IMG/VR virus record: IMGVR_UViG_3300043568_000079
Location: 1-64,000 of that record
DNA: 64,000 nucleotides
Origin: an uncultured virus (IMG/VR IMGVR_UViG_3300043568_000079)
Lineage: Duplodnaviria; Heunggongvirae; Uroviricota; Caudoviricetes
Strand: one strand, 5' to 3'
Shown here piece by piece: positions 19,082 to 59,317 of the stretch. How positions within the stretch are numbered: position 1 is the stretch's first letter; the number at the start of each line of letters is the position of its first letter. The notes under the pieces were generated by a model. It was not told the DNA's origin. It searched no databases and saw only the letters and a program-made list of their open reading frames with translations. The position numbers were made by a program, and so were the translations under genes.

Positions 19082-19093
19082 AAGGAGATTCAC

Positions 19094-19699
19094 ATGAAAC
19101 ATGTGGGAAAAATGAAAAATAATGCTGCTCGAGTAGCAGTAGTTTATAGGACTGTTCCGGGAGAGCCCAACAACGCATTAGTAGTTGGGACTAGTGGCTT
19201 GCCAGATGCTAATCACGATGCTTTGATGAGCGTTATTCAAAGTGAATCCGGTCAACAAGCAAACGAGTTAGCTGACATCTTAGCAACACGCCGATTCCCA
19301 GACGGTGATGTAATGCTAAGTTGGTTACACGCCCGTGGACAACTTAAAAAAGTTCCCACTAATCTCGTGTTAATGACTCCCAATACTCAAACACAAATTC
19401 CATTGAATGAACTCAATGAAATGATTGCAACTCAGAAAGGAATCACTGTTGAGGATTTGGCTGTTAGTGATGGTCAGAAAAAATCTACCGTTACTAAAAA
19501 AGAAGCCAAGGAAGAAATTATTGTCGATGATATTATTGTCGACACTGCTCCTACAATTGCAGAAGCACCAGTTACTGCATCTGACTTGCGGTCAATGGCA
19601 GACAAACTTTCTAAGCAGGCAGCAGAGATGCGCCGCAAAGCAGACGAAATGTCTCCGCCAGTTAAGAAGACGGCTAAGGCAACAAAAGCCGAAGCTTAA
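19094..19699 (+). CDS. Hypothetical protein
   Basis: 201 aa, SD AGGAG, MKHVGK start, basic tail. Confidence 0.75.
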   Translation: MKHVGKMKNNAARVAVVYRTVPGEPNNALVVGTSGLPDANHDALMSVIQSESGQQANELADILATRRFPDGDVMLSWLHARGQLKKVPTNLVLMTPNTQTQIPLNELNEMIATQKGITVEDLAVSDGQKKSTVTKKEAKEEIIVDDIIVDTAPTIAEAPVTASDLRSMADKLSKQAAEMRRKADEMSPPVKKTAKATKAEA

Positions 19700-54274: not shown

Positions 54275-55288
54275 ATGAACCTTTTTAAAAAAGTAGCCTG
54301 TTTTACTGACATACATTTTGGACTCAAGTCTAACAGTAGTACTCATTTACGAGATTGTGAAGAATTTGTAGATTGGTATATCGAAAACGCTAAAAAAGAA
54401 GGGTGCGATACTGGAATCTTTTTAGGAGACTGGTCACATAATCGAAATAGTCTCAACTTGATCACGCTGGATACCAGTATCCGATGCTTGGAAAAACTAG
54501 GAGCTGCTTTTGAGCAGTTCTTCTGGTTTCCGGGCAATCACGATTTGTTTTACAAAGATAAAAGAGATATCCATAGTAGTGCATTTGGAAAACACATTCC
54601 CGGAATGACCGTAATCGACGGCGTAACAACTATCGGCGATGTTACACTTGTGCCGTGGTTGGTAGGTGAAGAGTGGAAAACTATCAGTCAAGTTAAGAGC
54701 AAATACATGTTCGGACACTTTGAATTGCCCTTATTCTATATGAATGCTATGGTACAGATGCCTGATCATGGTGAATTGCAAGCTAGTCACTTCAAACATC
54801 AAGACTATGTGTTCAGCGGACACTTCCATAAGCGTCAACAGCGTGATAAAATTGTCTACATTGGTAATGCTTTTCCACATAACTTTGCAGATACAGGCGA
54901 TGATGCCCGAGGTATGATGGTTATGGATTGGGGTGGGGAACCTAAATTCATCGACTGGCCTAACTGTCCTAAGTATCGTCATGTTAAACTAAGCGACTTA
55001 ATTGACAAGAAGGACGATATCATGAAGGGCAAGATGCACCTTAAAGTCAGTCTTGACATCGATATCAGTTACGAAGAAGCAAACTTTATCAAAGAAACCT
55101 TTACTCAAGAGTATGACATCAGAGAAATCAGTCTTATTCAAGATAAAATTAACTTAGAAGGCAACATTGATGACAATCCGGACACTAAATTTGAAAGTGT
55201 GGACCAGATTGTATCAGAACAACTAGTTAATATTGAATCTGACCAATTCGATAAGGCAGTTTTACTAGACATTTATAATAATCTATGA
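54275..55288 (+). CDS. Recombination nuclease (T4 gp47 / Mre11-SbcD)
   Basis: Metallophosphoesterase motifs TDIHFG, LGD, GNHD, GHFE, SGHFH. Confidence 0.93.
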   Translation: MNLFKKVACFTDIHFGLKSNSSTHLRDCEEFVDWYIENAKKEGCDTGIFLGDWSHNRNSLNLITLDTSIRCLEKLGAAFEQFFWFPGNHDLFYKDKRDIHSSAFGKHIPGMTVIDGVTTIGDVTLVPWLVGEEWKTISQVKSKYMFGHFELPLFYMNAMVQMPDHGELQASHFKHQDYVFSGHFHKRQQRDKIVYIGNAFPHNFADTGDDARGMMVMDWGGEPKFIDWPNCPKYRHVKLSDLIDKKDDIMKGKMHLKVSLDIDISYEEANFIKETFTQEYDIREISLIQDKINLEGNIDDNPDTKFESVDQIVSEQLVNIESDQFDKAVLLDIYNNL

Positions 55289-57063
55289 GTTTTAAAATCC
55301 GTAATATCACCGTGAAAAATTTTCTATCAGTAGGAAATCAAACACAAGCCGTTGACTTTGACAAAGAACTTTTAACTTTAGTGCTGGGCTCTAATCACGA
55401 TCTAGGTGGGGACGACACAGGATCTCGTAACGGCACAGGCAAGACCACCATTGTCAATGCATTGTCGTATGCATTATACGGTCAAGCACTGACCAACATC
55501 AAAAAAGAAAACCTGATCAACAAGACCAACGGCAAAGGCATGTTAGTTACTGTTGAGTTTGAAAAATCTAGTGTTAAGTATCGTATTGAGCGGGGCCGTA
55601 AGCCCAATGTACTGAAATTGTTCGTTAATGATCAAGAATTAAAGAGCAAAGACGAAGATGAAGCACAAGGTGACAGCCGTGAAACACAGAAAAGCATTGA
55701 ACAGATGTTGGCAATGTCCCACACTATGTTCAAACACCTAGTTGCACTCAACACCTACACAGAACCCTTCTTGAGTATGAAGGCTGCTGAACAACGAGAA
55801 GTAATTGAACAGTTGTTGGGCATTACTCAACTGAGTGAAAAGGCAGAAGCACTAAAGCTATTGATCAAAGAAACTAAAGACAGCATCACCGCTGCACAGT
55901 TTAAGATTGAAGGTATTAAGAGTGCTAACGAAAATGTTCAAAAGAGCATCAACAGTTTGCAACTCAAGAGCAGTGCTTGGGAATCTAAGAAAGAAACTGA
56001 AATAGAAGGACTAGGTAAAGCCATTGTTAATCTAGAATCAGTTGATATAGATGCAGAACTAGCAGCTCATGTTGCATTAAAAGCATGGGATGAAGAGAAT
56101 GCTCGCATTCGCAGTCTTAACAAACAACGTGCTACTCTAGAGTCAGCAGTGATTCAAGCGGAACGCACACTAAACAGATATACTAAAGAGATTAAATTAC
56201 TCGATGATAAGAAGTGCCCTGCTTGCGAACAGGATCTACATGATCATAAGCATGATGAAATGCTGGCAACCGCTGCTAACAATTTATTAGATGCACAAAC
56301 TTACTTTGATAAAGTAAGTGCTGACTATACCAAAATTGTAGAAGAAATAGGAACTGGTGAGCAACCACATAGACCCAACACCTATTACGATACAGAAGCA
56401 GAAGCACTAGGTCATAAAAACAATCTTGCCAGTTTAGAGCGCACATTAACACAGAAGATCGACGAAGCTAATCCTTATGAAGAGCAAATCGAAGATCTAA
56501 AGAACACTGCGATTCAAGAAATCAACTGGGATCAAGTGAACGCTCTTGCCAAAGTTAGAGATCATCAAGAATTCCTTTACAAACTGCTGACAAACAAGGA
56601 CAGTTTTGTTCGTAAGAAGATTATCGATCAGAACTTAACCTACTTGAACAAGCGATTGACCTACTATATTGACAAACTAGGACTACCGCACAAGGTAGTA
56701 TTCCTAAATGATCTTACTATTGAGATTACTCAGTTAGGTCAAGACCTAGACTTTGACAACTTATCTAGAGGTGAACGTAATCGTTTAATCCTGTCCATGA
56801 GCTTTGCATTCCGTGATGTATGGGAAGGTCTGTATCAGAATATTAACTTGTTGTTTGTTGACGAGCTTATGGATGCAGGGATGGATGCAGCAGGTGTCGA
56901 AGCAGGTCTTGCGGTTCTAAAAAAGATGGCACGGGAACGCAATAAGAATATATACTTGATAAGTCATAAAGATGAATTAGTAGGTCGTGTAAACAACGTC
57001 CTTAGAGTTATCAAAGAAAATGGATTTACCAGTTACTCAAACGATGTCGACTATGTTGAATGA
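55285..57063 (+). CDS. Recombination ATPase (T4 gp46 / Rad50-SbcC)
   Basis: KNFLS, Walker A NGTGKT, coiled coil with zinc hook CPAC, LSRGE, LFVDE, ISH. Confidence 0.95.
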   Translation: MSFKIRNITVKNFLSVGNQTQAVDFDKELLTLVLGSNHDLGGDDTGSRNGTGKTTIVNALSYALYGQALTNIKKENLINKTNGKGMLVTVEFEKSSVKYRIERGRKPNVLKLFVNDQELKSKDEDEAQGDSRETQKSIEQMLAMSHTMFKHLVALNTYTEPFLSMKAAEQREVIEQLLGITQLSEKAEALKLLIKETKDSITAAQFKIEGIKSANENVQKSINSLQLKSSAWESKKETEIEGLGKAIVNLESVDIDAELAAHVALKAWDEENARIRSLNKQRATLESAVIQAERTLNRYTKEIKLLDDKKCPACEQDLHDHKHDEMLATAANNLLDAQTYFDKVSADYTKIVEEIGTGEQPHRPNTYYDTEAEALGHKNNLASLERTLTQKIDEANPYEEQIEDLKNTAIQEINWDQVNALAKVRDHQEFLYKLLTNKDSFVRKKIIDQNLTYLNKRLTYYIDKLGLPHKVVFLNDLTIEITQLGQDLDFDNLSRGERNRLILSMSFAFRDVWEGLYQNINLLFVDELMDAGMDAAGVEAGLAVLKKMARERNKNIYLISHKDELVGRVNNVLRVIKENGFTSYSNDVDYVE

Positions 57064-57370
57064 AGAGATAAACAAGTATACAGAAATGTATTCTCAGCTG
57101 ATTACTGAATTTGCAGGTCTGCATAACACACATATGTCGTTTGTAAAATACATTGGCAGAGAAACAGGATTTGCCACTAGAAAACACCTACATCAAATAT
57201 GTGTTATTGCCAACGACATGAGAAGACAGGGTCAAAAGATCCGTAGAGAAAGCATTGCAGCTAAACGAACTGCAATAAAAGAAGCAAAAGCAGAAAAAGC
57301 CAGGCTCAAAGCTATACCAAAAAAGCGTGGGCGCAAAACAAAAGGAAATAAAAATGACAACAATCAATGA
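57053..57370 (+). CDS. Basic helical protein, possibly a divergent Hc1-like paralog
   Basis: ETGFATRKHL lines up loosely with AAGTRSRKAL of the next gene; Lys/Arg-rich tail. Confidence 0.5.
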   Translation: MLNEEINKYTEMYSQLITEFAGLHNTHMSFVKYIGRETGFATRKHLHQICVIANDMRRQGQKIRRESIAAKRTAIKEAKAEKARLKAIPKKRGRKTKGNKNDNNQ

Positions 57371-57551
57371 ACAATTACAAGCACAGTTTGCAGAATTTCT
57401 AGCAGAGGATGCAAAATTTACAGGCGGCAATAGTGCAGCCGGAACTCGCAGTCGCAAGGCTCTTGGAGAGTTAAGTAAGCTAGTAAAAGCAAGACGCAAT
57501 GAAATTACAGCAGAAAAGAACGCTCGCAAAGAAGCTAAGGCAGCAAAATAA
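57354..57551 (+). CDS. Histone H1-like (Hc1-family) nucleoid protein
   Basis: KFTGGNSAAGTRSRKALGELSKLVKARR motif; SD AAGGA. Confidence 0.75.
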   Translation: MTTINEQLQAQFAEFLAEDAKFTGGNSAAGTRSRKALGELSKLVKARRNEITAEKNARKEAKAAK

Positions 57552-57983
57552 TTGAACAACTGGACTTATCAAGGTTCAGTAGTCGAAGAGCTACCCGAAG
57601 ACTGTATAGGTTTTGTATATTGCATTACCAATACTGTCTCGGGTCGCAAATATATTGGCAAAAAATTAGCAAAATTTAGTAAAACGACCTACAAGACTGT
57701 AAAGTTAAAGAACGGCACAAAGAAAAAGAAAAAGATCCGCAGCAAAATTGCTTCGGATTGGCAAGAATATTACGGCTCCAGTGTTGAGCTGACAAAAGAC
57801 ATAGACACCTTGGGCAAACAAAACTTCTCCCGCGAAATATTATATTACTGCAAAAGTAAATCAGAAACATCTTACATTGAGGCCCGCGAACAATTCGACC
57901 GCAAAGTATTAGAATCCGACGAATACTATAACGGACACATACAAGTCCGTGTCCATGGCTCTCACATTAAAACAAAAATTTAA
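57552..57983 (+). CDS. GIY-YIG endonuclease-family protein
   Basis: GFVYCIT...RKYIGKK, YYGSS, REIL, E.REQ, YYN; TTG start right after the previous stop. Confidence 0.85.
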   Translation: MNNWTYQGSVVEELPEDCIGFVYCITNTVSGRKYIGKKLAKFSKTTYKTVKLKNGTKKKKKIRSKIASDWQEYYGSSVELTKDIDTLGKQNFSREILYYCKSKSETSYIEAREQFDRKVLESDEYYNGHIQVRVHGSHIKTKI

Positions 57984-57987
57984 AATC

Positions 57988-58269
57988 ATGACGAAGCTAA
58001 ATTACTCTAAGACAAATAAAAGCGATACAGCGTTTTTAAATGATCCTTATTGGACTAAGCCGAAAACTGGATTTGACAAGACATGGCATACTCAAAGAGA
58101 CAATCTCAAGCAACACCTAGGCATTCACAAAGAACATAACTGGGAAATCATCAACGAACCTACAGGTCCACACGCAGGTAAAGTGGTCTGTGATACTTGC
58201 AAAACTAAAAAAGGCAAAAGTATGTTTGTTTCATGGCTTCCTAAAGGTTACATATTACCTAACACCTAA
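57988..58269 (+). CDS. Small putative zinc-binding protein
   Basis: H..H...GPHAGKVVCDTC...FVSWL. Confidence 0.6.
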   Translation: MTKLNYSKTNKSDTAFLNDPYWTKPKTGFDKTWHTQRDNLKQHLGIHKEHNWEIINEPTGPHAGKVVCDTCKTKKGKSMFVSWLPKGYILPNT

Positions 58270-58271
58270 GG

Positions 58272-58650
58272 TTGGCGGGCCAGTTTAATAATACCGCTGT
58301 GGAAAAACCGGGGAATAACCGGACACGTAACATATTGAGACACTCCCGTGGGTATATCCCACTAGCCTGAAAAATCGGCAGCGAGTCTGAGAGCGCGAAC
58401 CCTAATGCTCGACGTATTGATATAGTATGAATGTTAGCATACGAAATCACCGGCTAAGAAAACTTAGACACTAGGAACGAGGTCTAAGACGCATTATGCG
58501 AGTCGATGTAGGTTGGGAAAGATCAGAGCCCATTAGCTTACGGTGAATAAAAATACCTACTTCCAATGTCTCGGCTGTGTGCAACTCACATGAAGACAAA
58601 AGATGGAACCGCAGCAAAACGGTTCCGTCTGACCGAAGCAATCTACATGA
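58272..58650 (+). ncRNA. Putative large structured ncRNA of unknown class (strand inferred)
   Basis: Lies in a ~500-bp gap with no credible ORF; many hairpins plus long-range helices 58335-42/58567-74, 58447-57/58533-46 and 58506-15/58639-48, some with G-U pairs that form on the + strand. Confidence 0.6.
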
Positions 58651-58728
58651 ATTTAATTAGCTTCGCTTAAATAGTGCTTCAAGTAAGAGCGTAAGCGATT
58701 ACGAAGAAGCAAATGAGCGTCAGCTCAT

Positions 58729-58736
58729 TATAAATA
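58729..58736 (+). promoter_or_regulatory. T4-type late promoter
   Basis: Exact TATAAATA upstream of ORF 58766. Confidence 0.6.
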
Positions 58737-58765
58737 AAAGAAATACTTTTTAGGATTTCCTTGAT

Positions 58766-59317
58766 ATGCGTATAAATGAGTTAATTGTTAAACAACAACT
58801 AGATGAATTAAGCCTAGCCGGGGCTCTAGGATCAGCAGCAAGAGGTACTGCAAATGTTGTAGGCGGTACTAGAGGTGCTATAGCAGGCGCTAAAGATGTG
58901 TTTAATCAACGAGCAGATCGAGTTGCTAATGTTGCTCAGAGACGTGTTCAACAAGCTGGAGGTTATAAAGCCCCACCAGCTCCTACGACTACTGTGGCAC
59001 CTCCAGCTACTACAGCTCAAACTAATACAGCACCTGCTACCGGAACCACCGCTCCCGCTAATACAGCACCTGCTACAAATGCAGCTAGTCAAGGAAAAGT
59101 GGGCGAACCAGCAGGAACAACACCTGCCACTACAGCAAACACAGGAAAAGTAGGTGAACCTGCAGGTCGTCAAGCAATTGACAATGCAATTGCTACCATT
59201 AAGGCAGTTAGGGGTGATCGCAGACCTCAAGTAGTTGCATACGGAATACAACAATTAGGTACCGTAAAAGAATCTAACCTAATATTTCACAGCAATTTCT
59301 TAGGTAAAGATATTTAA
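58766..59317 (+). CDS. Ala/Thr/Pro-rich late protein (head-internal protein candidate)
   Basis: MRINEL...LDE start, low-complexity middle with GKVGEPAG twice; late promoter upstream. Confidence 0.6.
   Translation: MRINELIVKQQLDELSLAGALGSAARGTANVVGGTRGAIAGAKDVFNQRADRVANVAQRRVQQAGGYKAPPAPTTTVAPPATTAQTNTAPATGTTAPANTAPATNAASQGKVGEPAGTTPATTANTGKVGEPAGRQAIDNAIATIKAVRGDRRPQVVAYGIQQLGTVKESNLIFHSNFLGKDI

Follow-up and report, generated by a model that had tools for sequence, protein, structure and literature searches.

It is rare to find a large, highly structured RNA of unknown function, and several of those known have proved to be new molecular machines. Among smaller structured RNAs, the antitoxin RNAs of type III toxin–antitoxin systems are cut out of repeats, those of the ToxI type forming tandem repeats of whole 34–36-nucleotide (nt) units beside a ToxN-type gene. 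The T4 proteins SegB and SegE are free-standing GIY-YIG homing endonucleases encoded beside stable-RNA genes. Here, we describe an RNA locus in a 64-kb stretch of DNA (positions 1 to 64,000 of IMG/VR record IMGVR_UViG_3300043568_000079, hereafter the window). The source record, 74 kb long and viral, comes from an uncultured T4-like phage, and the fragment is put at 21% complete. We propose, with a probability of roughly 60%, that the locus is a stand-alone gene for a multiply pseudoknotted noncoding RNA of ~386 nt and that it belongs to an uncatalogued family, the twin-box family, of uncultured aquatic T4-like phages. The more limited statement, that a real and independent structured RNA of this family is present, we hold with high confidence. 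The closest catalogued motif is the orphan motif Polynucleobacter-1 (Rfam RF01718), whose model spans just 141 nt. A cis-regulatory role was proposed for it, and Table 1 of Weinberg 2010 (PMC2864571) marks it “cis-reg? y”.

A sequence-only reading of this DNA had described positions 58272–58650 as a large, probably pseudoknotted + strand noncoding RNA of no recognised class, and this description is supported by the comparative data given below. An RNA does lie there; it turned out to be longer at both ends, with a conserved leader that begins at ~58259 and a tail that extends to 58728.

Homologues and Covariation

An exact 30-base probe search of viral contigs retrieved six contigs. Four of these are identical to the window, and the other two (L002 and L006) are 83–86% identical over the region, with no substitutions between 58421 and 58633. 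Examination of 80 loci from gp46 relatives and of 32 viral-contig stretches carrying a conserved 19-mer yielded 18 distinct full-length copies as well as partial ones. Metagenome contigs scanned with a pattern describing the invariant hairpin gave at least 120 stretches, and 117 of the 120 metagenome stretches listed were homologous by nhmmer. As can be seen from the 32 viral-contig and at least 120 metagenome stretches, homologues are widespread in freshwater, estuarine and marine phage DNA. A blastn search of 50,697 GenBank phage records with the window RNA and a marine variant gave no match. The hairpin pattern also retrieved 46 sequences from representative prokaryote genomes; none of the 46 matched the covariance model described next, and they were rejected as chance matches.

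The covariance model, R1, was built from 15 sequences; so as not to prejudge the long-range helices, only nine local hairpins were supplied to it. All 100 chosen phage and metagenome sources were matched by R1, with scores of 49–478 bits. The resulting 100-sequence alignment was used for mutual-information analysis and for a formal count over 86 proposed pairs (6947 cells). Standard pairs are present in 93.6% of the cells, compared to 32.7–41.4% when partners are slid by one to three columns. Changes on both sides occur in 61 of the 86 pairs and in 1005 cells, compared to 70–137 cells in the slid controls, and not one of 500 shuffles reached the observed value on any of five measures. Covariation among the 100 homologues is therefore far above both controls, crossing helices outside the model included, which bears out the earlier view of a densely structured noncoding RNA: its fold is kept by compensatory change on the + strand. 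Folding of the single window sequence is unremarkable (z = −1.9 for the + and −1.5 for the − strand) and not decisive, so the case rests on the comparison with relatives.

Nineteen helices are supported in the alignment. The 5′ domain (58268–58445) contains P1 (58274-78/58294-98), P2 (58299-301/58324-26), P3 (58308-11/58319-22), P4 (58332-38/58417-23 with 58340-41/58414-15) and P6 (58425-29/58438-42), of which P2, P4 and P6 lie outside the search model; the P4 pair 58333/58422 is UA in 54 sequences and CG in 24. P4 closes a variable insert (58342–58413) with four helices (58342-45/58383-86, 58348-52/58358-62, 58365-67/58377-79 and 58391-94/58407-10) that are 95–100% paired, with 50–66 rows gapped; many marine homologues lack the insert, and most marine rows are gapped there. 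The conserved core (58446–58583) is formed by P7 (58453-56/58534-37), P8 (58463-69/58482-88), P9 (58490-92/58498-500), P10 (58505-07/58522-24), P11 (58508-13/58555-60) and P12 (58514-17/58529-32). Here, P7, P10, P11 and P12 are outside the search model. The P10 pair 58507/58522 is CG in 55 sequences, UA in 20, UG in 13 and GC in 6, and in P11 (GUAGGU/ACCUAC) the pair 58509/58559 is UA in 89 and CG in 10. Since P10 crosses both P11 and P12, and P7 crosses P11, the RNA is pseudoknotted. Two weaker small helices were detected at 58563-65/58572-74 and 58577-79/58587-89, and the body also includes the hairpin P13 (58601-10/58621-30; AGATGGAACC/GGTTCCGTCT). The GGAACC/GGTTCC part of P13 is constant throughout, which in part reflects the selection of metagenome sequences by this hairpin; it is also invariant in 20 viral-contig sequences found with another pattern.

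Several pairs are dominated by G-U combinations (GU in 69 of 79 sequences, UG in 63 of 80 and UG in 66 of 100). Since these would be A-C mismatches on the other strand, they point to a + strand RNA, as the sequence-only reading had argued from the G-U pairs of the window alone; they are abundant throughout the alignment. All eight local hairpins of that reading are present in the sequence and hold: seven co-vary (P1, P3, P6, P8, P9 and the insert helices 58348-52/58358-62 and 58391-94/58407-10), and the eighth is P13. The outer GTC/GAC pairing of the hairpin at 58385–58413 overlaps the supported helix 58342-45/58383-86. The four long-range helices that were tested are jointly 78.0% paired against a shuffled mean of 77.3%, and double changes are not in excess. 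From the proposed helix TCACCG-GCTAA/TTAGC..CGGTGA, the GCTAA/TTAGC part survives as P7, and the TCACCG/CGGTGA part, paired in 29–74% by three sub-helices, had to be given up. No covariation was found for TTGAGACA/TGTCTCGG or for ATGTAGGTTG/CAATCTACAT, and these two were likewise rejected as conserved helices. In 64 of 98 sequences, 58507 and 58647 do not form a pair, U58507 pairing with A58522 in P10 and not with A58647. The further extension TCAGA/TCTGA is conserved and complementary and never co-varies. Thus, the anticipated pseudoknots are real, but they form between helices other than those proposed (P10 with P11/P12 and P7 with P11).

A candidate for a further helix, between 58567–72 and 58594–600, is suggestive: its duplex energy of −5.8 kcal/mol compares to −3.4 kcal/mol in shuffles, and 22 of the 79 pairs do better than 95% of shuffles. 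Three segments, ACCUAC (58555–60), AACUCAC (58583–89) and AAUCUAC (58640–46), could each pair with GUAGGU at 58508–13; only the first of them co-varies with it. Judged by complementarity, the second and third could support an alternative conformer. On the minus strand, P13 followed by ATCTTTTGTC (58605–58626) scores as terminator-like, which, given the G-U evidence for the + strand, is probably incidental. A short open reading frame (ORF) of 34 amino acids (aa) at 58566–58670 was rejected, as it is not conserved and its frame is broken by one-base indels in relatives.

The Twin Boxes

The 3′ part of the RNA body, at 58584–58652, is a module composed of ACUC, box 1 (58588–58594), a spacer, P13, the invariant GUCUGAC, 6 nt, AAUCU and box 2 (58645–58651). 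The two boxes thus flank the spacer, P13 and GUCUGAC, and P13 together with GUCUGAC is the most conserved part of the RNA. Both boxes read ACAUGAA in the window. The longer segments that include them, UCACAUGAAG (58586–58595) and CUACAUGAAU (58643–58652), co-vary by identity, not by complementarity: column by column, the same letter is found in both boxes in 94–98% of sequences. In 89 of 96 window-type sequences, box 1 and box 2 carry the same 7-mer; 12 variants occur among these, including ACAUGAA, ACAUGAU, GCAUGAA, ACGUGAA, GGAUAAU, AGAUGAA, ACAGAAA and ACAUCAA. In four of the seven non-identical pairs the boxes differ by one base, and the other three are alignment shifts. We know of no other structured RNA with covariation by identity of this kind.

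The boxes are A-rich and lie outside the supported helices, except for the weak 3-bp helix at the start of box 1 (58577-79/58587-89), which is 78.5% paired. Apart from 58577/58589, no column of the alignment co-varies with the boxes in a complementary manner, and no conserved third copy of the box was found across the family. Pairing of the boxes with each other through the palindromic CAUG was considered and rejected, since it fails for ACAGAAA, ACAGGAA and ACAUCAA. A same-sense third copy with a pyrimidine lead, TTCACATGAA, occurs at 19089–19098 (+); three copies in the window correspond to chance level.

A regular expression written for the module matches the window at a single place, and 501 kb of unrelated control loci contain no match. 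The features that define the family, i.e., identical 7-nt boxes after ACUC and AUCU, with a hairpin and then GUNUGAC in between, are found at 58584–58652. The window also shows the features of its own subtype: R1 matches it end to end over the RNA body (58268–58653) with 452 bits, the window being a seed sequence, and helices P1–P13 are supported in the 100 sequences.

Leader and Tail

Sequences on both sides of the RNA body are conserved as well. The leader CUAACACCU (58259–58267) corresponds to a consensus “..A.C.AACAC.U” found before AAGG in the unique upstream stretches of 66 loci, and it is conserved whether it is coding, as in the window, or noncoding, as in loci of the L064 type. In many marine loci, the leader is preceded by AAGGCAAAAC; in L130, L135, L179 and other marine loci, AGGCA occurs three to four times within 70 nt upstream of the RNA.

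Downstream of the body, the sequences of 51 tails define three hairpins (58659–58728). Hairpin 1 is formed by 58659-61/58665-67, hairpin 2 by 58676-80/58706-10 and hairpin 3 by 58713-18/58723-28, the last with at least nine fully complementary variants among the 51 tails. Across window-type and Polynucleobacter-1-type RNAs, the middle hairpin is 93.0% paired, compared to 30–47% in slid controls. Its inner motif GAGYG..ARCGA (58676–58710), in which Y and R co-vary in 45 aligned tails, resembles sheared G-A pairs in tandem that close off a small loop, and a protein might bind to it. The last stem-loop directly precedes TATAAATA (58729–58736, + strand), which is kept in most tails and separates the RNA from the downstream gene. 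We take TATAAATA to be the T4-type late-promoter consensus, here ahead of the gene at 58766–59317.

Relation to Polynucleobacter-1

Some relatives match only the last ~130 nt of the profile. These carry RF01718 in the same slot after segE (33 of 33 relatives scanned, 71–120 bits). At 34 of 34 distinct loci, the 141-nt RF01718 motif is followed by a further ~250 nt of conserved noncoding sequence that ends in ACUC and a box, a hairpin, GUGUGAC, and AUCU with the same box; the two boxes are identical at all 34, and seven box variants occur. The same three tail hairpins follow, and then TATAAATA. Polynucleobacter-1-type RNAs are thus similar to the window RNA in total length, slot, 3′ module and tail hairpins. 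The first hairpin starts GGYURGCG..GGCCA in both, but it is the only hairpin in which the two are alike there, and their 5′ and central domains cannot be aligned. R1 matched none of 28 Polynucleobacter-1-type loci, so the link rests on slot, module and tail and not on a joint model. Conversely, RF01718 (threshold 37 bits) has no match in the window, and none at E ≤ 10 in 57900–59000. The exchange of one RNA for the other is best seen between the window and L009, whose gp46 proteins are 98% identical: the DNA is 87% identical up to 57983 and 77% identical from 58669, with unrelated RNAs in between.

Because RF01718 occupies the same slot and is followed by the same twin-box module, we regard it, on the basis of this sequence comparison, as the 5′ domain of a ~380-nt RNA that is a sister to the window RNA. 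On this view, the 16-year-old Polynucleobacter-1 motif represents just the first third, at the 5′ end, of a larger RNA carried by phages, which argues against the cis-regulatory role proposed for it. The family-wide core is ACUC-box...hairpin-GUNUGAC...AUCU-box, with boxes that vary between lineages and are identical within each RNA.

Searches against Known RNA Classes

The sequence-only reading recognised no known class and called for a covariance-model check. We ran the 4227 families of Rfam 15 against the window and found no match at gathering scores; at E-values up to 10, the stretch 57900–59000 contained no match inside the RNA. In particular, the models of GOLLD, ROOL, HEARO, OLE, raiA, group I/II introns, RNase P RNA and 6S gave no match in the window, nor inside the RNA at E ≤ 10, and ARAGORN found no tRNA or tmRNA genes in the window. 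Nothing relevant was obtained with Rfam at 40 divergent homologous loci, at gathering and lax E-values. None of the known ribozyme models in Rfam matched the window RNA.

No description of the window RNA was found in the literature on structured phage RNAs and on jumbo and freshwater phages. The main text of PMC10690425 does not contain it by the terms tried; the supplementary list of that paper, with ~10,000 candidates, lay outside this search and may contain the RNA. For Polynucleobacter-1/RF01718, the literature search returned only Weinberg 2010 and two genome-annotation papers. The twin-box RNA, widespread in water phages, appears to be a class of large RNAs that is in no RNA catalogue.

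Genomic Setting and Expression

The genomic position of the RNA is fixed: the gp47/gp46/segE block comes before it, a gene with a late promoter comes after it, and the genes that enclose it are always on the same strand. In the window, the order on the + strand is genes for gp47-like and gp46-like recombination nuclease subunits (54275–57063), a histone-Hc1-like gene, a segE-type gene, a 106-aa ORF and the RNA. The segE-type gene (57552–57983) encodes a GIY-YIG nuclease of 143 aa that matches Pfam PF19835 over residues 4–130 (E = 3.2e-33). The 106-aa ORF (57949–58269, + strand) has no Pfam match above threshold and carries a CxxC motif; its final codons and stop overlap the conserved leader of the RNA. 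It is present only in some relatives; L064 and L031 lack it, and in these two the stop codon of segE is directly adjacent to the RNA. The gap that had been singled out as the largest gene-free stretch runs from 58270 to 58765 (496 nt); no other internal stretch that lacks an ORF of at least 75 aa is as long, and its G+C content is 0.459, compared to 0.381 for the 64-kb window. The next gene follows at 58766–59317 on the + strand. The similarity of L002 and L006 to the window ends at ~58748, ~20 nt before its start.

The 74-aa ORF at 57327–57551 (+) matches Pfam Hc1, a chlamydial histone H1-like protein (E = 1.4e-12), within the replication/recombination block of a T4-like phage. In many GenBank records of cyanophages and of Stenotrophomonas, Acidovorax and Sinorhizobium phages, SegE-type GIY-YIG homologues bear the annotation “NAD synthetase”, which looks like a propagated misannotation.

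Of 79 loci with at least 100 nt of upstream sequence available, 56 have a segE homologue directly upstream in the same orientation and 13 a homologue of the 106-aa ORF; one or the other is found in 62, including freshwater and marine variants. Neither is present in the available 100–462 nt at the remaining 17 loci. The tail of segE also precedes nearly all aligned Polynucleobacter-1-type RNAs. SegE homologues occur in 484 GenBank phage records, and the twin-box module is absent from both of the SegE loci inspected there (Melnitz-3 and BUCT-ZZ01). The segE-type nuclease gene and the RNA are thus often adjacent without being obligately paired.

Pieces of the RNA or of close relatives are covered by contigs of three RNA-labelled runs, each from a different study; these pieces correspond to 58129–58401, 58502–58656 (no mismatch), 58268–58434 and 58310–58574. 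As support for expression, these contigs are weak.

Proposed Mode of Action and Alternative Explanations

Since no promoter of its own was found, the RNA is probably made as a 3′ continuation of the upstream message and then trimmed. It probably works in trans, as a folded RNA or as an RNA–protein particle, in which the 5′ and central domains would serve as the scaffold and the twin boxes with the invariant hairpin as the working face. The boxes, being identical within each RNA and different between lineages, point to a specific partner: they may be two copies of one lineage-specific recognition sequence, both read by one partner that another locus of the phage, or the host, encodes: a sequence-specific protein or a complementary nucleic acid. 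This dual-recognition mechanism we offer tentatively, and we consider it possible rather than probable. Considerably more speculative is the idea that the RNA is a programmable adaptor, whose pseudoknotted scaffold presents two copies of a 7–10-nt element and takes a partner, possibly the GIY-YIG nuclease, to a lineage-specific target, the Polynucleobacter-1 domain being one interchangeable head; we give it little credence.

Several observations weigh against the reading of a stand-alone RNA gene with a partner for its boxes. A scan for σ70-like promoters just upstream of the RNA found none. The contigs from RNA-labelled runs include flanking coding DNA, may reflect carry-over of DNA and show neither ends, nor strand, nor level. 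The reverse complement of the box was not found in the DNA beside each RNA (up to 1.2–1.5 kb, often a few hundred bases), and the complementary sequence TTCATGTRRR does not occur on the + strand of the 64-kb window. Identity of the boxes could be maintained through mechanisms other than a shared partner, and the invariance of P13 is in part built in by the way metagenome sequences were selected. Finally, with a segE gene upstream of 56 of the 79 loci, there may be a functional link between the RNA and this gene.

The identity of the boxes could also be explained if they were twin processing sites, at which one endonuclease frees a ~57-nt hairpin RNA (58588–58644), with the large RNA as its precursor and folding chaperone and the product as a possible decoy or antidote, comparable to the excision of type III antitoxin RNAs from repeats. 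An enzyme that processes repeats needs identical sequence at both borders of the unit, the boxes are A-rich and mostly outside supported helices, and the enclosed hairpin with GUCUGAC is the part of the RNA that is most conserved. However, the repeat comprises only 7–10 nt and not a whole 34–36-nt unit, and if a protein read the boxes as cutting sites, one would expect a constant sequence and not 12 variants. No nuclease gene co-occurs consistently other than the segE type, which belongs to a DNA-nuclease family, and a contig from an RNA library crosses box 2 unbroken, although contigs cannot show ends. We therefore think that processing at the boxes is unlikely. Variation of the boxes between lineages, as is seen for guides, would likewise suit an RNA that is the targeting partner of the upstream 143-aa GIY-YIG nuclease. 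A segE or 106-aa ORF homologue precedes 62 of the 79 loci on the same strand, the segE tail stands before nearly all aligned Polynucleobacter-1-type RNAs, the 3′ end of the gene abuts or overlaps the RNA leader, and the Pfam match to residues 4–130 of 143 leaves little room for a DNA-binding domain. Yet the constant co-occurrence and the complementary target that one would look for in an RNA-guided nuclease were not observed: 17 of 79 loci have neither homologue in the available upstream sequence, the nuclease occurs in 484 phage records in which blastn finds no window-type RNA (and the module is missing from 2 of 2 inspected), and the search for a target of the boxes, just 7 nt each, found none. 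Such a partnership seems to us improbable.

A cis-regulatory element, i.e., a leader of the downstream gene or a 3′ untranslated region of the upstream genes, would agree with the position of the RNA, always between same-strand genes, with probable co-transcription with the upstream gene (no own promoter having been found) and with the mark given to Polynucleobacter-1 in the table of Weinberg 2010 (PMC2864571). On the other hand, three hairpins and the late-promoter consensus TATAAATA stand between the RNA and the next gene, and the sequence past the RNA is not constant: L002 and L006 diverge at ~58748, and in L012 additional DNA comes ahead of the next block that is shared. The gene upstream is not always the same either (segE, 106-aa ORF or neither), and ~390 nt with several pseudoknots far exceeds what known leaders of this kind need, so that we attach only a very small probability to regulation in cis. 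Smaller still is the chance that the locus acts as DNA, be it as an origin of replication, as a site of recombination whose crossover cores are identical or as the target at which the neighbouring nuclease homes. Direct repeats around an inverted repeat do resemble recombination and origin sites, and the cassette is swapped exactly beside segE between the window and L009; but the swap fits an RNA gene that is homing cargo or target just as well, and duplex DNA has no need of compensatory changes in 61 of 86 pairs, of strand-specific G-U pairs or of pseudoknotted helices that span 100 nt. A structured RNA gene of the twin-box family remains the explanation that we prefer.

Comparison with Known Systems

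The window RNA resembles GOLLD and ROOL (Kretsch et al. 2024, preprint 10.1101/2024.12.08.627333) in being large, intricate, carried by phages, rich in co-varying helices and found by comparative genomics. It differs from them in size, being smaller (~390 nt), and matches neither of their Rfam models. A repeat by identity such as the twin boxes is, to our knowledge, not known from GOLLD or ROOL. As in ToxI-type antitoxin RNAs, a small structured unit is bordered on each side by the same short sequence, but the window RNA repeats 7–10 nt inside a fold of 390 nt, and no ToxN-type gene is found nearby. The setting is that of T4 SegB and SegE: a small GIY-YIG gene lies directly beside a highly conserved RNA gene, and where otherwise near-identical phages differ in their RNA cassette, they do so exactly at the end of the nuclease gene. 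This likeness is one of neighbourhood and not of RNA function; the nuclease family is itself widespread without the RNA.

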